A stretch of DNA of 64,000 nt from a virus (lineage: Duplodnaviria > Heunggongvirae > Uroviricota > Caudoviricetes), in IMG/VR virus record IMGVR_UViG_2563366840_000011, positions 1 to 64,000 of that record; one strand, given 5' to 3'. The position numbers were made by a program, and so were the translations under genes. Position 1 is the first letter of the stretch. Each line of letters opens with the position of its first letter. Positions 29,945-49,411 of this stretch are shown in pieces. Under the pieces are notes generated by a model. The model was not told where the DNA came from. It worked only from the letters and a program-made list of their open reading frames with translations, and searched no databases.

Positions 29945-30252
29945 ATATATTTATGATGAGGACGCTCGTGCTTATTGGCAGGATTTTCAATCTTAAAGGA
30001 GTACTGATGCTGCAGATAAGACTCAACTTTTTCTGACAATTTTTCTGCTACTTCCAGGAAGACTTGCCGGACGCTCCTTCTGGCTGCTGCCTCATAAAAC
30101 TCCAGCGCAGCTCCTTCAACACGGTCCATGGCGACATCCAGGTCAAAAATTTCACCGTCAAAGCGTTCTTTGTCCTGTAAGGCTACAGTTACCGTAACTT
30201 TATTCTCAAAATTACGGACTCCTTTCACAACCAGTTCATAGTCTTGAGTCAT
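29941..30252 (-). CDS. ydfR: YdfR-like protein (DUF1327)
   Basis: 103-aa ORF between holin and endolysin as in Qin. Confidence 0.65.
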
Positions 30253-30256
30253 TGGA

Positions 30257-30472
30257 TTACTCTCCTCTCGCAGCCTTACGCCTGTCTTCTTTAATCTTGA
30301 AATAAAGATTTGTCAGATACGTCAGCAGGCCAAAAACCAGGCTACCCAGCACACCGATTGCAGCCCACTGTGACGGAGTTACTTTATCGAGTAACTGCAA
30401 TGCCCAGAAACCAGCATTACCCGCCGATGTGCCATAGGCAACACCTGTTGTTAACTTATCCATTGATTTCAT
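30257..30472 (-). CDS. essQ: Holin, S21-type pinholin (dual-start motif MKSMDK)
   Basis: Matches remembered P21 S sequence (…[11 protein letters not shown]…[20 protein letters not shown]); two TM segments. Confidence 0.8.
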
Positions 30473-30691
30473 ATCCTCACCCCGATGTACACGGATGGTG
30501 CAATATGTTTGAAAAGATCGGAGTCTACGGGGTAGTTTTGACAGCACACGTTGTTCTCAACGGCGCTAAAAAAACATACACATTAAAAATGTGGGTAATT
30601 ATTTTGAAAGAAAGTCATATATAAAATAATAATACGAGAAATGTTTTCATATTTAGTGTACTGTATACGGCCATTTATACAGGAAAAGCCT

Positions 30692-30862
30692 ATGTCAGAA
30701 CGTAAAAACTCAAAATCACGCCGTAATTATCTCGTTAAATGTTCCTGCCCAAACTGCACCCAAGAGTCAGAACACAGTTTTTCAAGAGTACAAAAAGGTG
30801 CCCTTTTGATCTGCCCTCATTGCAACAAAGTATTCCAGACAAATCTTAAAGCTGTAGCCTGA
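30692..30862 (+). CDS. Small zinc-ribbon protein (two CxxC pairs), hypothetical
   Basis: 56-aa ORF from ATG with AGGAAAAG SD; CPNC...CPHC motif; opposite strand to the lysis genes. Confidence 0.4.
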   Translation: MSERKNSKSRRNYLVKCSCPNCTQESEHSFSRVQKGALLICPHCNKVFQTNLKAVA

Positions 30863-30916
30863 TTGATTTTATTAGTAACAAGTATTTTTTATATTTTAAT
30901 AATATATTTAAAGCAG

Positions 30917-30943
30917 ATAATAAAAAACCCGCCTGAGCGGGTT
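30917..30943 (-). terminator. Rho-independent terminator downstream of cspB
   Basis: aacccgc-ctga-gcgggtt hairpin with T-rich tract on the minus strand. Confidence 0.5.
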
Positions 30944-31225
30944 TGAGATTGTGGTGCTTTTTGTGGGAGTCATCCACTTACGCACTTTGTTTTGCCATGC
31001 CAGCAGTTAGCTTCTGCTGTAAAACTATTCATGCAGCAAACCTGCACTTCACCACAATGGTTAGCATACTTTTCCTGATTAAGATTTTGCCAAATATGCT
31101 AGCCATTGTTTCATGTATTGGACCTCCTTACTTTTTATTAAAGAGATCCAATATTCACTACTCTGTCCGTATCTCTACTCAGGCATCAGCCTTCTTCGTT
31201 ATCGTATACAGACGAGCGATGAATT

Positions 31226-31441
31226 TTAATCAGTAATGATGACATTTGCTGCTGCAGGACCTTTAGCACCACTCTCTATAGAGAAGGTAACCTTTTGACC
31301 TTCAAATAAGGTTCGATAATTATCATTCTGAATCGCAGAAAAATGCACAAACACATCTTTACTACCATCAACAGGAGAAATAAAGCCGAAACCTTTATCA
31401 GCGTTAAACCATTTTACTAAACCAGTCATTTTATTTGACAT
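31226..31441 (-). CDS. cspB: Cold shock protein CspB
   Basis: 71-aa CspA-family ORF; position and sequence as Qin cspB. Confidence 0.85.
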
Positions 31442-31741
31442 TCTACATTCCTTAACTTGAGCCTTTCGGCATAAATGGTTTGCATAACAGAAACGACTTC
31501 GTACTTAATTGGAGAGACTCAAAGAAGGAATAAGTGAATAACACCTGAAATGAGAACTGCTTTAGTAAACTACTTCGTATATCGTCTGTTCTTCAAACCG
31601 ACGCAATCATTAACGCATAGTTGAACATATGAAGCAATGTTTATTTTAGACATCCAGCCATCTTCAACCCCATCAAAAAACTATAGCTTTCTTCAGGAAC
31701 GTGTGTATAGTGCGCCAAGTTATCAGTATTAAGGAATTTTT

Positions 31742-31954
31742 TTGTCCCGTAAAATGACAGGAATTGTCAAAACCTTTGACGGCAAAAGCGGCAAGGGTCT
31801 TATCACCCCATCCGATGGTCGTATCGATGTCCAGCTTCATGTTTCAGCGCTCAATCTCCGCGATGCAGAAGAAATTACCACCGGATTACGCGTGGAATTT
31901 TGCCGGATAAATGGTCTGCGTGGCCCTTCAGCTGCCAATGTTTACCTTTCATGA
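31742..31954 (+). CDS. cspF: Cold shock protein-like CspF
   Basis: 70-aa divergent CspA-family ORF, divergently oriented to cspB. Confidence 0.8.
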
Positions 31955-32246
31955 GCTATATTAAAGCTTTAATTTCAGGCCCCATCGGATCACACATGGA
32001 GAGTTTTTATGAATAACCCCGTCTGTCTTGATGACTGGTTGATTGGCTTTAAAAGCTTATGCTGTACTTTGGCCGTAATAGCTCTGCTAATAATATAATA
32101 AGCAGACTCATTGTGTTTAGGGACATTGTACTGGAAGAAAACATTTTAAACATCAGGCAAATAACCAAGTCACCAGCTAAATAATAAGTTAACAGACATG
32201 AGTCCCGGGATGAGATTCAACATTACCATTGCCCCATTTAAAGCAC

Positions 32247-32270
32247 AAAACCCGCTCATCAGCGGGTTTT
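32247..32270 (-). terminator. tR'-like terminator downstream of the late promoter
   Basis: aaaacccgc-tcatc-agcgggtttt hairpin about 45-70 nt downstream of the predicted -10. Confidence 0.5.
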
Positions 32271-32315
32271 CTACTTTTTCTTAACGTCGGGTATACAAAG
32301 CCCATCGTTGAAAAA

Positions 32316-32344
32316 ATTTTATCCATATTTTTTGAAAAATGCAA
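32316..32344 (-). promoter_or_regulatory. pR'-like late promoter (-35 TTGCAT, 17-bp spacer, -10 TAAAAT), presumed Q utilization region
   Basis: Near-consensus sigma70 hexamers on the minus strand immediately downstream of Q. Confidence 0.45.
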
Positions 32345-32375
32345 ACATCATGTCGCCATCTTCAGCAAAAATCAT

Positions 32376-33128
32376 TTATCTCGTCACCTTCCTCAATTGC
32401 GCTTCCGCGTATGCTTCTTCCTGCCAGCACTTTGTTACCAGTTTACCAATGACGTCCGCATACCCCTTATACCACTGATAATCGGTCAGGTCTGGTACCA
32501 GCTTCTGGACATGACGTCGTGCCAGCGTGGTCGGTAAACGACTAAACCGGTTTCCATTACAACGCCCACAAATCTTATATACCGGTACGCCATGAAACCG
32601 GGTTCTTTTTTCATCCAGAACAATCCCTTTACCCTTACACCCTCTGCACGCTGTGCTGGCTTCGCCCTTACCATGGCAATGCTGACATAGTTCCTTCACC
32701 CATTCTTCCTTGATTACAGATTCCCCGCGTCTGTAGTGTTTCACCACTTCGCGCAATACATTATAAAATCCCGTACCTGAACAATGCTCACAGCGAGCCT
32801 TACTTGCCGCAGACCTGGAGTAATCAGCAAAGGCAAAACTCACGAGGTAAGGAATAATCTGTAACCGGATTTCTTCACTCAATTTGTTCAATGTCGGGTT
32901 ATCCAGTGCCATCGCGTAATTTAGCAGGCCTTCAATCGCAAACTGAGGGTCCTGAACACCAACTTTTGCCAGAAATAAGGCCAACCCAAGTGGTGCTTTC
33001 GACTGCACCATCCCCTGCGCTGCCATTACATCCGTAATTGTTAAACAACCGGTGCCTGTCGCTGGAGCGTCATCGCTCAATTTTGGAGATTTTGGGGAGT
33101 AATATTTTGGTAAGGCTTCAAGGTTCAT
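32376..33128 (-). CDS. quuQ: Late gene antiterminator Q
   Basis: 250 aa from MNLEALPKYY; Cys-rich zinc-binding motifs; directly upstream of a pR'-like promoter. Confidence 0.8.
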   Translation of the reverse strand: MNLEALPKYYSPKSPKLSDDAPATGTGCLTITDVMAAQGMVQSKAPLGLALFLAKVGVQDPQFAIEGLLNYAMALDNPTLNKLSEEIRLQIIPYLVSFAFADYSRSAASKARCEHCSGTGFYNVLREVVKHYRRGESVIKEEWVKELCQHCHGKGEASTACRGCKGKGIVLDEKRTRFHGVPVYKICGRCNGNRFSRLPTTLARRHVQKLVPDLTDYQWYKGYADVIGKLVTKCWQEEAYAEAQLRKVTR

Positions 33129-33141
33129 GCTCGTTCTCCAC

Positions 33142-34191
33142 TTACGCCAGTACGCCAATTGCCAGCGCGCGATCGATAAAACGAAATATCAGCTCCAGTT
33201 GGGAGCCATACTTATCTTCAAATGCCACTGTATCCGTATGCAGCTCGTTGTGATGCTTTCTGCACAAAGGCAACACAAAGAGATCATGTGCTTTTGTTCC
33301 CATTCCGCCCTGCCCGTGACCAATCAGATGATGCGGATCGTCGGCTGGCATACCGCAGCAAGCACACGGCTGTGTCTTAACCCAACGTGTGTATTTCTCC
33401 TTAACCCAGCGGCGACGTTTAGGCAGCTTCATGAAAGATTCCGGAGACTCTGGATCAACGGTGATGCTTACCACCGTCTTTTCCTGTGGTGATTTTTGTT
33501 GCTGGTGGGCGTAAGGCAACGGTGCAAGATTTTTTGTGCGTTGTTTCAATATGCTGGTGGCGGTCTGCTCTCCCGGTACGATGTCGCTTTCGCGGTACAC
33601 CGAGCAGATTTTTTCCGCTGGTAATCCCAGCGAACGACGCGATACAGCCTCAGGTAGTGCATCCACCACCTGATTGCAGACCGCCCACCAGGATAATTCA
33701 GCCAAAGATAATTCCCGCTCCTGCGTACCGCTTATTGCGTGACGGATGACGTCAATCACCCATGCTGTCAGATTTTGTTGAGCAAGCAGCTCCAGTGATT
33801 CCGATGTCTGGTCACGCAGTTGGTTGTCGCAGTGCCAGCACAACACCATTGCGCCGGTACCATAACGGTGAATGACTGTTTCAGTGTGATGGTAATCGCC
33901 ATTAGGCCACTGGCAGGATGTAACATGACGTAATAGCCAGTCGGACAATGCGCCAACGCCGCCAGCAGCACGAATCACCCGTTCGTTACTAAAAAACGGC
34001 AGCAATGTTTTGTCTTCCGCCAGCGGCTGGCGAACGGCAGGAACGACTCCGGATGGCAGATTACGCATGCTTTTTGGTTCCGGTTCCACCAGCACTCGAG
34101 GATTATGAAATATCTGTATGGATTCACGGCCCGGCTTAAGGACCACCAGCCCAAGCTCAGGCACCAGAACAGGTCTAAGTAATACCCGCAC
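33142..34191 (-). CDS. ydfU: YdfU-like DUF968 protein with C-terminal HNH-like motif
   Basis: 349 aa from GTG at 34191 with GGAGG SD 5 nt upstream; C-terminal CxxC...HH...H HNH-like signature. Confidence 0.7.
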   Translation of the reverse strand: MRVLLRPVLVPELGLVVLKPGRESIQIFHNPRVLVEPEPKSMRNLPSGVVPAVRQPLAEDKTLLPFFSNERVIRAAGGVGALSDWLLRHVTSCQWPNGDYHHTETVIHRYGTGAMVLCWHCDNQLRDQTSESLELLAQQNLTAWVIDVIRHAISGTQERELSLAELSWWAVCNQVVDALPEAVSRRSLGLPAEKICSVYRESDIVPGEQTATSILKQRTKNLAPLPYAHQQQKSPQEKTVVSITVDPESPESFMKLPKRRRWVKEKYTRWVKTQPCACCGMPADDPHHLIGHGQGGMGTKAHDLFVLPLCRKHHNELHTDTVAFEDKYGSQLELIFRFIDRALAIGVLA

Positions 34192-34192
34192 G

Positions 34193-34471
34193 TTACCTCC
34201 AGATCCGTTGCTGGAAAGTGCGGGACGCACGTGGTGGGCGTTCGGAATAAGGCAGCCTGACAGAGATTATCCAGTGCCGATAGTCGAGACTGAGAGCTTT
34301 CTTAACCTCGAACCCGCGCCTGCGGTAAGAATGAATCAGCCATTCGGCCTGTTCTGCAGTGCATGGAGGGTGCTGGAACCATTCAGACTTGAATGCGTGA
34401 GAATACCGCCCGTGCGTGCAGGCAAGAACGGGCGAATTATCAGAATTGTAATATTTTGCGTTGCGTGCCAT
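34193..34471 (-). CDS. Hypothetical 92-aa protein, translationally coupled to ydfU
   Basis: ORF whose stop lies within the ydfU SD/start region; no confident family. Confidence 0.4.
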   Translation of the reverse strand: MARNAKYYNSDNSPVLACTHGRYSHAFKSEWFQHPPCTAEQAEWLIHSYRRRGFEVKKALSLDYRHWIISVRLPYSERPPRASRTFQQRIWR

Positions 34472-34537
34472 CGGTTTTCTCCGGTGGCACGGTGTTACTC
34501 AGCGGGAGTTCAGCCCCGCGCAAGATTGTAGATGAGT

Positions 34538-34789
34538 TTATTCTTCTGAAAAAGCAGAAAAGCCAGCTTTTATTCCGATCTCTTTCAATGCCTGTAATGA
34601 AGTGACAAACTCACCTTCGCGCAAGATAAATCCGTCCGTGACCCGAGCATCCACAAAATTAATTAACGCAGCCCCATTCTTTCGCAAACACATAATGCGG
34701 TAATGACTAACAAGATTTCCATTTTCAACGCACACAGCATAGAGGCCATCTTCACAAAAAATTTTACGCAGTTCTTCGATGTTCATCAT
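34538..34789 (-). CDS. rem: Rem-like small prophage protein (83 aa)
   Basis: 83-aa ORF in the Qin rem position between ydfU and hokD. Confidence 0.55.
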   Translation of the reverse strand: MMNIEELRKIFCEDGLYAVCVENGNLVSHYRIMCLRKNGAALINFVDARVTDGFILREGEFVTSLQALKEIGIKAGFSAFSEE

Positions 34790-35005
34790 CAGAATCCTTC
34801 CGGATAATTAGCTCTCCCCTTTAAGGGACCATCCCTCTTATCCCTGCGCGCTACTTAAGTATTTTTGATTCTATTCCGGCACCGTCCAGAACTTCAAACG
34901 CGTTGAAAATAAAAACAAAAACCCGCCGAAGCGGGTTAAGTGCGGGTGCGTTGAGGATGCCTGCCACATCAGAGGTGGCGAGGGATTTCTCCCCCGCCGG
35001 GTCTC

Positions 35006-35161
35006 TTACTCCTCAGGTTCGTAAGCTGTGAAGACAGCGACCTCCGTCTGGCCGGTTCGGATTCGTACCTCGCAGAGGTCTTTCCTCGTTACCAGTGCCG
35101 TCACTATGACGGTTAAACAGATGACGATCAGGGCGATTAACATCGCCTTTTGCTGCTTCAT
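35006..35161 (-). CDS. hokD: Hok-family type I toxin (HokD/RelF), 51 aa
   Basis: Hand translation MKQQKAMLIALIVICLTVIVTALVTRKDLCEVRIRTGQTEVAVFTAYEPEE; not in the ORF track (under 60 aa). Confidence 0.8.
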   Translation of the reverse strand: MKQQKAMLIALIVICLTVIVTALVTRKDLCEVRIRTGQTEVAVFTAYEPEE

Positions 35162-35232
35162 AGCCTGCTTCTCCTGTCAACGCAAAGCAGAAGTGTCACC
35201 TTCGGTGCGAAACAGAGATGTCATGCTTTGGT

Positions 35233-35520
35233 TCAGAGAATGCGTTTGACCGCCTCGCTATATACTTCCGAGCGTTCTCTTTTCCCAACAGAAATCACGA
35301 AAACGACAACTTTCTCGTCTATAACCTGGTATACAAGGCGATAGCCTGAAGACCGGAGCTTAATCTTGTAACAATCAGGCATACCACGGAGCTTGTTTGC
35401 TTCAATCCGGGGTGACTCAAGTACTTCAACCAGCTTCTTTTTCAACTGTTCACGTACCGTCGAGCCCAGCTTTCGCCATTCCTTTAGTGCCCGCTCGTCA
35501 AAATCCAGAAAATACGCCAT
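35233..35520 (-). CDS. relE: RelE mRNA interferase toxin
   Basis: 95-aa ORF matching RelE. Confidence 0.9.
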   Translation of the reverse strand: MAYFLDFDERALKEWRKLGSTVREQLKKKLVEVLESPRIEANKLRGMPDCYKIKLRSSGYRLVYQVIDEKVVVFVISVGKRERSEVYSEAVKRIL

Positions 35521-35759
35521 CAGAGTTCATCCAGCGTCACACGTACTGGCTTAGGATTACGAAGCCGTTCTTTCACTATCTCCACAAGTTCAGCATCTTC
35601 ATCACTCAGGAGTGTCTGTTTGAACGGCAAGCGTTCATTGTCAGCGATATACTCGAGCATGAGACGAAGCGCTTCAGAAGGAGTTACACCCATTTTTTCA
35701 AGCGCGGCGTAAGAACGCGCTTTAAGTTCATCGTCAATACGCAGGTTAATGCTACCCAT
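35520..35759 (-). CDS. relB: RelB antitoxin
   Basis: 79-aa ORF matching RelB; stop overlaps relE start. Confidence 0.9.
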   Translation of the reverse strand: MGSINLRIDDELKARSYAALEKMGVTPSEALRLMLEYIADNERLPFKQTLLSDEDAELVEIVKERLRNPKPVRVTLDEL

Positions 35760-35783
35760 GTCTTACACCTCTTGTAATTACAA

Positions 35784-36089
35784 ATGTCATTACAAGTATC
35801 GCACTACAACATGCTTAGGGCAAGTCACGAAGGAAGTCAGAAAGTAGTCGTAAGAACGGTGATCACTGTCCGCTTTGTGCCAGGAGCAGCCATTGCTAAG
35901 TCCATCCTGTATTGTGCAGGTCAGCTCGTTTTTAAAGAGTCCGGCCATCATCTTACTGGTACAGACACCATATACTTTGTGACGGTCAGGCTACATATGC
36001 ACAACTCAACTTATTCATCTATTTTTTGCTTTAGCATGTCAGTGTTGCTTTCTCGTCGGCGGGTGAGCGGTGACCTGACCTGTCGATAA
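35784..36089 (+). CDS. ydfV: YdfV-like hypothetical protein
   Basis: 101-aa ORF in the Qin ydfV position; weak sequence support. Confidence 0.35.
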   Translation: MSLQVSHYNMLRASHEGSQKVVVRTVITVRFVPGAAIAKSILYCAGQLVFKESGHHLTGTDTIYFVTVRLHMHNSTYSSIFCFSMSVLLSRRRVSGDLTCR

Positions 36090-46673: not shown

Positions 46674-46907
46674 ATGTATGTTCTGGTAGATCGCACCCAT
46701 GCCCGTAAACCATGCAGTCCATTTATGTCTTATGCAGTCAGCGCTGTACTTGCTGAGCAAGTTGGCGATTTTCATAACGCTGCAACAGCCTGGAAAACTG
46801 CATTCAGCCTGGCGAAAACAGAGGTCAATTCTATCTGGGCAATATCGCGAATGGAGTTCTGTCTTCATGCGGCGAATCGTGGTTGGGGGATTCCGAATGA
46901 AAGCTAA
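46674..46907 (+). CDS. Hypothetical protein (77 aa)
   Basis: ATG 2 nt after the previous stop. Confidence 0.35.
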   Translation: MYVLVDRTHARKPCSPFMSYAVSAVLAEQVGDFHNAATAWKTAFSLAKTEVNSIWAISRMEFCLHAANRGWGIPNES

Positions 46908-47088
46908 AGAGTTCAATCTGCGATACCCGGTTGGCAGCGTCTTTATTTATCAGCCAAATCCGGTTTTACGTGGCGGTAAGGTCGTCAGCACCGTTGACCA
47001 GGCTCGTGACTGCCGCGATGTATCGGTAGTTGAAATAAATCAAGAACCTTATTTCGCCAATATTAAATCGCTGATACCAGCTAGCTGA
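46897..47088 (+). CDS. Hypothetical protein (63 aa)
   Basis: ATG overlapping the previous gene end. Confidence 0.3.
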   Translation: MKAKEFNLRYPVGSVFIYQPNPVLRGGKVVSTVDQARDCRDVSVVEINQEPYFANIKSLIPAS

Positions 47089-47168: not shown

Positions 47169-47891
47169 ATGGAAAATAAAGAGAAATATCTCCAGCGTAT
47201 TAAAAAACTGCTGGCAATGGCGCGTAATAACTCCAGCGCTGAAGAAGCAGCACTCGCGCTGAGCCGCGCCCAGCGCCTGATGGAAACCCACAAACTGACT
47301 GAAGCCGATGCGGCGATGATGGATATCAACGAGGCATCCACTCAGAAAGCCCCATCACATGCTGAAAAGATGCCTGAATATATGGCGCTACTGGCTCATA
47401 TGATAGCGCTGGCATTCGGGGTTAAGTTCTATACCACCCACGGTCATGAGCGCTGGGATGCTCCAGCAAAACGCACCATCACCTATTACGGACCGGACGA
47501 ACGTCCGCAGGTTGCAGCTTATTCCTTCGAGGTTCTTGGCAAGCAGCTGGCGAAGGCCCGTCGTGAATACACCGCCACGTTGCGTAAAAATATCAAACCC
47601 GCCACCAAGGTGGCTCGTGCCGATACGTTCTGCTCTGCCTGGGTGAATGGTGCCTATGCCGTTATCAGTGACTTTGCCGTCACTGAGGCCGAAGAGACTC
47701 TCATGGAGAGCTATCGCAGCAAAAAACTGAGTCAGGGCATGAAGAAACTGGAGCCTCGTAAACCGGGAAAAGCCAGCGGCACCGATGATGCAGCTAATCA
47801 GGGTTATCGGGCTGGCCGCAATGCGCAGTTACATCATGCTGTGACGGGGTCTTCAAATGCTGTAGCTCGAATTGAAGGGGGACCTCAATGA
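47169..47891 (+). CDS. Hypothetical protein (DUF2786-like N-terminus guess)
   Basis: 240-aa ORF with AAGGAG SD. Confidence 0.4.
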   Translation: MENKEKYLQRIKKLLAMARNNSSAEEAALALSRAQRLMETHKLTEADAAMMDINEASTQKAPSHAEKMPEYMALLAHMIALAFGVKFYTTHGHERWDAPAKRTITYYGPDERPQVAAYSFEVLGKQLAKARREYTATLRKNIKPATKVARADTFCSAWVNGAYAVISDFAVTEAEETLMESYRSKKLSQGMKKLEPRKPGKASGTDDAANQGYRAGRNAQLHHAVTGSSNAVARIEGGPQ

Positions 47892-48391
47892 GAGATATCA
47901 CCGCACTGGCGCAACACCTAAGAGTGTATGCCGAAGAATTCAGTTATCCGGTTCTATCTCCTGATGATTGCAAAACGCTGGTAGATGCGCTGGAAGCAGG
48001 ACAACCACACCACAACGGCCTGATGCAGCTCTCTAATGAACTGGTGATGGCTAAGCAGAGAATCGCAGAACTGGAGTCCGGCACAGCCACCGCGTCGCAG
48101 AGCGATTACTTTGCCTCTCTGGTAGCAATGGCTCGTGTTTCAGCAGAAAAAGCGATGCGGAAGTTCCCTCAGCCGAACTACGTGCTTCTTAAGGTTGCGG
48201 AGGAAGCTGGCGAGGTCGTGCAGGCCGGGGTCCATTACGCAGAGAAACGGATGGAGTGGCAGCAGGTAGAGGGCGAGATTGTCCAGCTGTTGGCAATGCT
48301 GATTCGCCTGGTGACGGAGGGCGACCAGATTAATGGCATCACTCCTCCGGCCGATGGCATCCAGGTTATCGAAGGGGATAATTATGACTGA
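47888..48391 (+). CDS. Protein with C-terminal MazG-like nucleotide pyrophosphohydrolase domain
   Basis: 167-aa ORF; EExGE-type motif (AEEAGEV) in an all-alpha C-terminal region. Confidence 0.5.
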   Translation: MRDITALAQHLRVYAEEFSYPVLSPDDCKTLVDALEAGQPHHNGLMQLSNELVMAKQRIAELESGTATASQSDYFASLVAMARVSAEKAMRKFPQPNYVLLKVAEEAGEVVQAGVHYAEKRMEWQQVEGEIVQLLAMLIRLVTEGDQINGITPPADGIQVIEGDNYD

Positions 48392-48749
48392 ACAACAGCG
48401 CAAGCCGGTGGTATTCATCGCCGGGCCGATGACCGGGTATCAGGATTATAACCGGGCAGAGTTCGACGCTGAGGCTAGTGTCCTGTCCGATCGAGGCTTC
48501 ACCGTACTAAATCCGGCGATACTTCCAGATGGCCTTGAGCACCAGCAATATCTGGCAATTACGCTGGCGATGCTGGAGCAGGCTGATGCGGTATTCCTGC
48601 TGAACGGGTGGGAAAAGAGTACCGGCGCTACCAGGGAGTTTGATCGTGCCTGTGAACTAGGGCTGCTGTTCCTTTACCAGGACTGGGAAAGCGTGTCTGT
48701 TGCGATCCACCGTAAGCGTCACCCATTAACGGAGGTGAGTTATGCATAG
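48384..48749 (+). CDS. DUF4406 / nucleoside 2-deoxyribosyltransferase-like protein
   Basis: 121 aa; N-terminal VVFIAGPMTG and AVFLLNGWEKSTGATRE pattern; overlaps the MazG-like gene end. Confidence 0.5.
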   Translation: MTEQQRKPVVFIAGPMTGYQDYNRAEFDAEASVLSDRGFTVLNPAILPDGLEHQQYLAITLAMLEQADAVFLLNGWEKSTGATREFDRACELGLLFLYQDWESVSVAIHRKRHPLTEVSYA

Positions 48750-48957
48750 CGTAACGGGTTGCCAGTTTCAGGACAACGGAAACCGCCGAATCTGGTTCTT
48801 CCGCGATAACAGCCAGGTTGTCGAGTTGTTGGCGGTGCCACTTAAGCTGCGGTTCAACTATTACGACGCGAACAACCGTACAGTTCGCAATAAGGGTACT
48901 CAGGCTGATATGAAAAAGGCGATTGAATCTTTCAAGAAACTTCGGGGGATAAAGTGA
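48742..48957 (+). CDS. Hypothetical protein (71 aa)
   Basis: ORF overlapping the previous stop. Confidence 0.3.
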   Translation: MHSVTGCQFQDNGNRRIWFFRDNSQVVELLAVPLKLRFNYYDANNRTVRNKGTQADMKKAIESFKKLRGIK

Positions 48958-49175
48958 TGGATATAGCTTTAGTCCTAATATTTCTGGCGATGTATTTAAC
49001 ACTTGGCTGGTGTTGGGTATGCATCCTTGTCCGATTAGTGGGATTAGCTAATTTATCCCGACAGAATTGCTGGTTTGCCTTTCTCTTATGGCCTTTGAGC
49101 ATTATCGCGACCGATGCGAATCTGGAGGAAAACGATGGGACATCTCCTGAGAAATCTGACAGCAAAGACCTTTAA
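48954..49175 (+). CDS. Hypothetical small membrane protein
   Basis: 73-aa ORF with two hydrophobic segments. Confidence 0.3.
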   Translation: MMDIALVLIFLAMYLTLGWCWVCILVRLVGLANLSRQNCWFAFLLWPLSIIATDANLEENDGTSPEKSDSKDL

Positions 49176-49411
49176 CCAGCGCTTCCCCGTTGACTCACAG
49201 TTCCATTATTACCTGATACCTGGTGTATCGGAGCGGGAAACTGTAATAACCCGCCCGGCAGCCTGGCATATGCGCAATGGTCGTCTGGTTGTCAGGGTCG
49301 AAGGGAAAATCGGTGGTATATCAGTCAGCAAAATGAAACCTTGAAAGTAAGTCATTACAGCAGGCACTTCATAAAGTGCCTGCGATAATGACAACCAACA
49401 GGAGAAATATT

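Follow-up and report, generated by a model that had tools for sequence, protein, structure and literature searches.

We found that two overlapping genes of a Mu-like Escherichia coli prophage, here called ORF1 and ORF2 (open reading frames 1 and 2), do not form a conserved two-gene module and are separate cassettes that are shuffled in an accessory segment. The genes are part of the IMG/VR virus record IMGVR_UViG_2563366840_000011 (Caudoviricetes), of which positions 1 to 64,000 were analysed (the whole 64,000-nucleotide stretch, hereafter the window), and they are confirmed as genuine coding genes on the + strand of the early region. The explanation that we favour, with confidence about evenly balanced, is that two separately mobile accessory cassettes sit in a translationally coupled early operon, ORF2 being a DUF4406 N-glycosidase and ORF1 an Ea22-type scaffold with a MazG-like domain, and that the two possibly act in series. 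ORF2 would act on a (deoxy)nucleoside 5'-monophosphate, cleaving its N-glycosidic bond by way of a covalent glutamyl-sugar intermediate, and in ORF1 a helical domain of ~85 amino acids would be borne on a variable N-terminus and a coiled coil that oligomerises; the motif EExxE-(20)-ExxQ of this domain most likely marks the metal and nucleotide site of a divergent MazG-like all-alpha nucleoside triphosphate (NTP) pyrophosphohydrolase. Where both genes are present, ORF1 could convert a (deoxy)nucleoside triphosphate, (d)NTP, to the monophosphate, (d)NMP, and pyrophosphate, and ORF2 could then release the base and (deoxy)ribose-5-phosphate. Early in infection, this serial reaction would eliminate or reshape some species of nucleotide, with the phage lineage not requiring both genes.

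DUF4406 membership and predicted chemistry of ORF2

The assignment of ORF2 to the DUF4406 family, already proposed from motif reading in the initial annotation, is firm at the level of profile searches. Pfam PF14359 (DUF4406) matches residues 9-96 on profile positions 2-89 of 91 with 97.1 bits (E 8e-28; gathering cut-off 22 bits), and it is carried by 72 of the 72 close ORF2 homologues. Among the PHROGs, the match is to phrog_355, labelled 'nucleoside 2-deoxyribosyltransferase' (E 3e-34), and the Pfam families of nucleoside 2-deoxyribosyltransferase (NDT) remain sub-threshold, with 14-17 bits vs cut-offs of 29-30. An AlphaFold 2 (AF2) model built with 34 homologues reached a predicted local distance difference test score (pLDDT) of 89.4 and a predicted template modelling score of 0.82, and when it was compared with the PDB using Foldseek, we observed 20 matches at E<=1e-3, nearly all of them NDT, RCL or DNPH1. 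The top match was the Trypanosoma brucei NDT 2a0k (E 1.2e-5), and further matches were RCL 2klh, DNPH1 8rpt/9i9q and the Chroococcidiopsis NDT series, all with probability 1.00, as well as the cytidine monophosphate (CMP) N-glycosidases MilB and BcmB (E 2e-3 to 8e-3, probability 1.00). ORF2 thus has the Rossmann-like alpha/beta fold of these solved structures.

Upon examining the conserved positions, we observe that G14, G18, N43-P44, D68, S79, G81 and E85 are invariant among 34 DUF4406 homologues. A profile search against PDB sequences aligns the AD(A/V)...S-x-G-xxx-E of ORF2 with 'ADVFVAFPGVPASPGTHVEIG' of MilB and 'DAVIA...GHEPDCGTAFEVG' of NDT, with D68 and S79-x-G81-xxx-E85 falling on 'DAV...DCGTAFE' of NDT and 'ADV...SPGTHVE' of MilB. 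The aromatic, Asp and Glu positions that correspond to Y7/D62/E88 of CtNDT (numbering from PDB mutant titles) are retained as F11 (Y in most relatives), D68 and E85, and the positions of the catalytic Asp and of the Glu nucleophile are, by this alignment, kept.

ORF2 resembles two sets of known enzymes. It shares its fold with the 2'-deoxynucleoside 5'-phosphate N-hydrolase DNPH1/Rcl and with the CMP N-glycosidases MilB/BcmB/BlsM (Foldseek E 1e-4 to 1e-2, probability 1.00), and its S-x-G-xxx-E with the catalytic Glu aligns residue by residue with the SPGTHVE of MilB, the preceding Asp being kept as well; it differs from DNPH1 and MilB in that the identity is about 20-25%, the protein is shorter (121 amino acids) and its Pfam family, PF14359, is a separate one. 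The NDT family (PF05014; T. brucei 2a0k, Chroococcidiopsis NDT) provides the best structural and profile matches, but ORF2 lies under its Pfam threshold, carries Ser in place of the Asp that stands before Gly-xxx-Glu in NDT, and has F11 instead of Tyr, though Tyr is the DUF4406 family consensus. In eukaryotes, DNPH1 removes hydroxymethyl-dUMP (hmdUMP) in nucleotide sanitation, and in the nucleotide hydrolases of the Rcl/NDT group the Ser before Gly-xxx-Glu touches the 5'-phosphate. Because the residue two before the Gly is Ser79 in ORF2, as in MilB/DNPH1, and is Asp in the transferases, we read ORF2 as a putative (deoxy)nucleoside 5'-monophosphate N-glycosidase and favour this over a nucleoside transferase, the substrate too being inferred from the motif.

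Three points weigh against such a reading. The Ser/Asp rule, by which nucleotide and nucleoside specificity are told apart, was compared here only with the MilB and T. brucei NDT alignments, the PHROGs label for the ORF2 family is that of a transferase, and a related phage NDT (PF05014) is a transferase acting on nucleosides (bioRxiv 10.1101/2025.10.22.683976). A literature search found no functional or biochemical work on DUF4406.

The naming of this family in databases is uneven. Single-domain DUF4406 proteins of actinophages appear as 'MazG-like pyrophosphatase', 'deoxycytidylate deaminase', 'hydrolase' or 'glycosyltransferase' (loci L079:1480-1860, L194:1189-1521, L193:1186-1557, L195:1186-1572 and L206:1489-1821), and the 'MazG-like pyrophosphatase' label of phrog_12019 is probably the same naming error. 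Fusions of DUF4406 with a MazG-like pyrophosphatase or a deoxycytidylate deaminase, as these labels and phrog_12019 would imply, were considered and rejected, the proteins being single-domain DUF4406.

Mosaic architecture of ORF1 and its C-terminal domain

Homologues of ORF1 number 827 at E<=1e-3, mostly from prophages of Klebsiella, Kluyvera and Citrobacter, and those with a name are called 'ead/Ea22-like family protein'. ORF1 itself has no Pfam match at E<=0.1, PF13935 included, and among the PHROGs it has only a marginal match, to a family without an assigned function. The full-length alignment begins with M-x-DIT-x-LAQ, passes through a hypervariable region with large insertions, LVEALE and the RIAELE coiled coil, and ends in a near-invariant C-terminal domain (CTD). 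PF13935 (Ead_Ea22) was detected in 10 of 19 aligned full-length homologues and covers their N-terminal part only (best E 5.9e-15), with the CTD of the homologues matched by no Pfam model. The N-terminal part of ORF1 is modelled by AF2 as helices 2-17, 25-36 and 42-65 (pLDDT about 75). Judged from alignment and model, ORF1 has the three-part architecture of an Ead/Ea22-type mosaic, in which a short N-terminal segment is followed by a coiled coil and then by a CTD that can be exchanged.

Ea22 proteins have been described as mosaic, pro-lysogenic, coiled-coil tetramers with acidic CTDs of unknown function that differ between phages (PMC10834534). The likeness of ORF1 to lambda Ea22 and PF13935 extends to all three parts and to the position among early accessory genes, whereas the lambda Ea22 CTD is mixed alpha-beta and unique in the PDB (PMC10834534), that of ORF1 is all-helical, ORF1 itself falls below PF13935, and its genome is Mu-like and not lambdoid. 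Searches of ORF1 and of the CTD against PDB sequences, both by phmmer and with profiles, gave no meaningful match. When the CTD alone was used in an exhaustive HMMER scan, 737 representative clusters (50% identity) were recovered, and the domain is found joined to unrelated N-termini; it is widespread, and no model in Pfam matched it. In some relatives (P0147, P0245, P0259) the CTD is followed by DUF551, a domain that has been reported both for Ea22 variants of Stx phages and for a phage MazZ, a dATP/dGTP pyrophosphohydrolase (PMC10834534).

Next, we considered whether the CTD is MazG-like, as the initial annotation had held for ORF1. Across 53 sequences with unrelated N-termini, E105, E109, E119, R121, E130, E144 and D146 are invariant. 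One CTD helix holds the invariant or near-invariant K102, E105, E106, G108 and E109, the next holds E130, and together they form the signature EExxE-(20)-ExxQ (E105/E106-x-x-E109 and E130-x-x-Q133), in which three of the four acidic positions of the metal motif are kept; position 133 is Gln in ORF1 and most members and Asp in a minority ('EGEIIDNL'). The CTD is modelled with pLDDT >90 as helices 74-92, 99-118 and 124-144. Its best NCBIfam match is TIGR03188 HisE, at the EExxE helix (E 0.036, 14.3 bits vs cut-off 42.7), a CTD relative bearing ExxD matches Pfam MazG PF03819 over both motif helices (E 0.013, 16.2 bits vs cut-off 22), and two CTD relatives weakly match PRA-PH. Aligned by hhalign with E. 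coli MazG, the EExxE/ExxQ of the CTD stands in register with EETYE/GELGD (probability 1.15%).

Several results count against a MazG-like CTD. All of its signals toward MazG are below significance; for ORF1, profile searches of Pfam, NCBIfam, PHROGs and PDB gave no MazG match at or near threshold; and Foldseek of the ORF1 model against the PDB gave nothing significant. The hhalign probability of the CTD against the PRA-PH family of phage Optimus gp163 was 0.3%, and a control of that same family against E. coli MazG gave 0.8%, so that the comparison is without power here because the control also fails; the probability was likewise very low against the single sequence of gp163. The fourth acidic residue is Gln in ORF1, which may abolish catalysis, and the catalytic competence of the CTD is uncertain because of this Asp-to-Gln change at position 133. 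Compared with MazG, HisE and MazZ, the CTD also lies under every family threshold, is shorter (three long helices) and is appended to an Ea22-type coiled-coil scaffold. The motif on which the MazG assignment was based, EExxE...Exx[Q/D], is thus real and conserved, but profile hidden Markov models, which bear out the DUF4406 assignment of ORF2, do not recognise MazG in ORF1. The hints are weak but mutually consistent, and a MazG-like fold is probably correct as the best single guess for the CTD.

The alternative that survives best, possible although clearly less probable than the favoured explanation, is that the CTD is non-enzymatic and ORF1 is an oligomeric developmental or host-interaction factor like lambda Ea22, whose acidic domain binds a partner, with ORF2 acting alone. 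The Ead/Ea22-like names of the full-length homologues, the tetrameric, pro-lysogenic nature and acidic CTDs of Ea22 (PMC10834534), the replacement of the ExxD Asp by Gln next to the want of a significant MazG profile match, and the occurrence of the CTD mostly without DUF4406, as in a Klebsiella lambdoid prophage described below, all agree with it. It accounts less well for the invariant charged residues (K102, E105, E109, H116, E119, R121, E130, R140, E144 and D146), which resemble an active or ligand site and persist across very divergent hosts, or for the weak matches, all of which lead to a single enzyme superfamily whose metal motif they meet in register.

Distribution of the two genes and neighbours of DUF4406

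The initial annotation had proposed that the two genes form a paired nucleotide-hydrolysing and nucleotide-binding module for nucleotide-pool manipulation or counter-defence. When separating viral contigs by the gene they carry, we observe DUF4406 within 4 kb in 3 of 49 contigs with the CTD, and the CTD in 3 of 18 contigs with a close DUF4406 and in 1 of 80 contigs with more diverse DUF4406 genes. A sample of the lineage that favoured neither gene, anchored on the DUF2786/DUF7168 gene upstream of ORF1, provided 20 close Mu-like contigs, among which 6 have both genes, 11 have DUF4406 only, 0 have the CTD only and 3 have neither; the association between the two is not significant (one-sided Fisher p = 0.32, calculated by hand), and seven more distant Mu-like contigs have neither CTD nor DUF4406.

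Contigs with both genes show both orders and four different spacings, and the CTD in them sits on differing N-terminal modules. The CTD gene overlaps DUF4406 in the window's phage only; other layouts are the CTD gene followed by two small genes and DUF4406, the CTD gene and DUF4406 with a 128-nt gap, and, reversed, DUF4406 followed by one or two genes and the CTD gene. Without DUF4406, the CTD gene was found in a lambdoid prophage of Klebsiella, where it lies early-left between repressor and integrase, and in a Kluyvera genome (at least one ORF1 locus among the matches listed, from the contig scan), and a syntenic E. coli Mu-like prophage has DUF4406 at 90.7% nucleotide identity with an unrelated 153-aa ORF in ORF1's place. 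The order, the spacing and the N-termini all vary, and therefore the CTD gene and DUF4406 are independent cassettes in a recombination-prone accessory segment, which refutes a conserved CTD and DUF4406 module. The specific pair is confined to one phage lineage.

The slot after the DUF2786/DUF7168 gene shuffles domains (L026:2903-3556, L042:3794-4588, L027:2868-3365, L180:5711-6214, L172:5551-6036), one N-terminal module (M..SPQ...KELVRAGHE.AAAMG...) being fused to the CTD, to a Cys-rich tail or to a 'ERQRQQSVEGWTPEHDD...LVKAGALIAAEIERIDR' domain that is unrelated. At L180, the overlap of an ERQRQ-type gene with DUF4406 is exactly the one seen for ORF1 in the window. The ERQRQ..EGWTPEHDD.. domain in ORF1's slot was considered as a PF18909-type pyrophosphatase and rejected, with no Pfam, PDB or PF18909 similarity. 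Among the loci with diverse DUF4406 genes (L084-L163, which are not phylogenetically independent), 26 of 65 distinct cases have a next downstream gene with an Ead/Ea22-like N-terminus and a different C-terminal domain; thus DUF4406 and Ea22-type genes often adjoin in temperate enterobacterial phages, whatever the tail. One distant Mu-like contig without both genes has in the same accessory segment (L184:6329-6877) a candidate YfbR-like HD-domain 5'-deoxynucleotidase, which reaches E 2.4e-5 and 24.5 bits against PF12917, just under the cut-off of 25.9, and may be another nucleotide-metabolism cassette at this position.

Beyond this lineage, DUF4406 homologues occur in at least 627 GenBank phage records, of which 19 were inspected, the first seven having been partly picked by annotation, so that the fraction with a given neighbour is biased. 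Phage Goku has DUF4406 beside an all-alpha NTP pyrophosphatase (gp111-gp112), and TBrady12 is syntenic with it. In MalagasyRose, gp52, with a C-terminal DUF4406, is about 200 bp from gp54 (PF18909, E 4e-32); in Optimus, one 33-aa gene separates gp161 (DUF4406) from gp163 (PRA-PH, E 9e-5); and in Rhodococcus phage ReqiDocB7, gp043 is about 750 bp from gp040 (PRA-PH, E 1.3e-7). Gordonia phage Monty has an annotated MazG-like gene, unconfirmed by Pfam, four genes off, and in Vibrio phage 1.017.O a trimeric dUTPase gene is overlapped by DUF4406. The remaining 12 of the 19 inspected loci have no NTP pyrophosphatase or dUTPase neighbour. The neighbourhoods of the actinophages resemble that of the window, with its candidate gene, in that DUF4406 and a gene for an all-alpha NTP pyrophosphatase lie 0-750 bp apart on one strand, sometimes with an overlap. 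They differ in that their pyrophosphatase belongs to a recognised family (PF18909 or PF01503) and is downstream of DUF4406, whereas the candidate in the window's phage is upstream, Pfam-unrecognised and on an Ea22 scaffold. These findings support an association of DUF4406 with NTP pyrophosphatases in general, and if DUF4406 consumes the dNMP product of dNTP pyrophosphatases, one would expect it to adjoin non-homologous enzymes of this kind in unrelated phages, as it does.

A different NDT family is tied to dATP-removing enzymes in diaminopurine (dZ) phages and was shown to deplete deoxyadenosine (bioRxiv 10.1101/2025.10.22.683976). The route from (d)NTP through (d)NMP to base and sugar-phosphate by ORF1 and ORF2 would be reasonable and chemically sensible, because DUF4406 adjoins dNTP pyrophosphatases, an NDT is linked to dATP removal in diaminopurine phages and DNPH1 acts in sanitation.

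On this evidence we regard it as improbable that the two genes are a dedicated module, in which a MazG-type pyrophosphohydrolase and a nucleotide-binding or nucleotide-hydrolysing partner manipulate pools or destroy a defence-related signal or chain terminator as counter-defence. The reading frames overlap and are coupled, DUF4406 is present in 6 of 6 CTD-bearing Mu-like loci, its recurrence beside the non-homologous PF18909, PF01503 and dUTPase in unrelated phages suggests a functional link, and the NDT of dZ phages co-occurs with dATP-removing enzymes (bioRxiv 10.1101/2025.10.22.683976). Overlap is, however, the rule for every gene of the operon, the CTD is missing in 11 of 17 DUF4406-bearing Mu-like loci (Fisher p = 0.32), neither order nor spacing is fixed, and in a close E. 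coli relative the ORF1 position is taken by an unrelated ORF. A PADLOC scan for defence-system relatives gave no match, the context is not defence-related and the chemistry is ill-suited to cyclic-oligonucleotide signals, with nothing pointing to anti-defence. What endures of the proposed pairing is the recurrence of DUF4406 beside genuine all-alpha NTP pyrophosphatases in actinophages; co-occurrence with the CTD does not hold up, and the counter-defence role is unsupported.

Least probable of all is that ORF2 is a true NDT swapping bases on deoxynucleosides, for salvage or for depletion of one deoxynucleoside, since the phrog_355 label, the best Foldseek and profile match to T. brucei NDT 2a0k and the existence of a phage NDT with dA-preferring transferase activity (bioRxiv 10.1101/2025.10.22.683976) are set against Pfam NDT scores of 14-17 bits vs cut-offs of 29-30, Ser79 as in MilB (SPGTHVE) and not Asp as in NDT (DCGTAFE), a length some 30 residues shorter (121 vs 150-160 amino acids), and neighbours in other phages that yield dNMPs, not nucleosides.

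Early-region setting and meaning for temperate phages

The surroundings of the two genes are Mu-like, with Mu transposase, a MuB-like AAA protein, DUF3164, GemA and Mor. Upon following the gene order, we find Mu transposase, MuB-like AAA, DUF3164, DUF2786/DUF7168, ORF1, ORF2, small genes, GemA, Mor, GH19 endolysin and terminase, so that the two overlapping genes and their Mu-like early context are as first described. ORF2 had been listed from the first ATG at 48333; its true start is ATG 48384 (MTEQQRKP...), the start also used in gene calls on public contigs with an identical ORF2 protein. ATGA (47888-47891) is shared by ORF1 and the DUF2786/DUF7168 gene upstream of it, and ATGCATAG (48742-48749) by ORF2 and the gene that follows. 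Start/stop overlaps thus run along the neighbouring genes, and therefore the whole stretch is a translationally coupled operon, in which the overlap of ORF1 with ORF2 is nothing special to the pair, as every gene overlaps. The features of the two genes are collected in Table 1.

Table 1. Coordinates of ORF1, ORF2 and their features in the window.
Feature	Positions	Strand	Description	Basis
Shine-Dalgarno-like AAGGGGG	47875..47881	+	5' of ORF1 ATG	read from sequence
ORF1	47888..48391	+	167 aa, Ead/Ea22-type mosaic protein	ORF list; identical gene call on public contigs
ORF1 residues 1-69	47888..48094	+	variable N-terminal segment (M-x-DIT-x-LAQ, LVDALE) and coiled-coil-like helix 42-65 (...KQRIAELES)	alignment, PF13935 in homologues, AF2
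ORF1 CTD, residues 72-156	48101..48355	+	all-helical, possibly MazG-like	K102, E105, E106, E109, H116, E119, R121, W124, E130, Q133, R140, E144, G145, D146
Shine-Dalgarno-like GAAGGGGA	48371..48378	+	within ORF1 3' end, five bases 5' of ORF2 ATG	read from sequence
ORF1 stop/ORF2 start overlap	48384..48391	+	8 nt, ATGACTGA	same junction called on public contigs
ORF2	48384..48749	+	121 aa, DUF4406, N-(deoxy)ribosyltransferase-like superfamily	PF14359, phrog_355, AF2, Foldseek
DUF4406 domain, ORF2 residues 9-96	48408..48671	+	G14, G18, N43-P44, D68, S79-x-G81-xxx-E85	Pfam envelope, invariant alignment columns, alignment to T. brucei NDT and MilB

Many E. coli genomes match positions 30000-36000 of the window at 100% identity in their Qin-prophage region (ydfU, ydfT, relE), and because of this match the host is taken to be E. 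coli. This Qin cryptic-prophage DNA sits to the left of the Mu-like prophage, and therefore the Mu-like element lies in or beside another prophage. An identical early-region segment (window 47169-49400) was found in 0 complete RefSeq E. coli genomes; megablast of the region gave no match among GenBank phages and a single partial match among complete E. coli genomes, which is a syntenic relative without ORF1. In an index of public assemblies, 243 blocks contain the identical ORF1 sequence.

Small paralogous genes at 46897-47088 and 49114-49344 (phrog_5591 and phrog_19503, which cross-match each other) flank the accessory segment that holds ORF1 and ORF2. Downstream, 48954-49175 encodes a strongly hydrophobic protein of 73 amino acids (MMDIALVLIFLAMYLTLGWCW...), probably a small membrane protein; almost every related Mu-like contig has it at this position, including those without ORF1 or DUF4406.

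Overall, ORF1 and ORF2 do not amount to a new system; they are accessory cassettes in a mosaic of the ordinary kind, and their families are already annotated, as DUF4406 and as Ead/Ea22-like or hypothetical proteins. What is added here is a functional hypothesis for each gene, together with the finding that the CTD is widespread. The further-reaching possibility is that the CTD is a new MazG-like pyrophosphatase family (>700 clusters at 50% identity) carried on Ea22 scaffolds in temperate enterobacterial phages, and that with a DNPH1-like DUF4406 N-glycosidase it forms a two-step disposal destroying a (d)NTP. We consider this unlikely, but if true, the target, which would be destroyed irreversibly, might for example be a nucleotide that is damaged or modified, or a chain terminator derived from a defence system, and this would be the first biochemical function both for an Ea22-family protein and for DUF4406. 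Ea22-like proteins are a long-standing 'dark matter' of temperate phages, and the favoured explanation proposes a concrete, testable chemistry for each component, that of an NMP-type N-glycosidase for DUF4406 and of a divergent NTP pyrophosphatase-like domain for the CTD. If confirmed, a nucleotide-disposal step would join the known phage manipulations of nucleotide pools.

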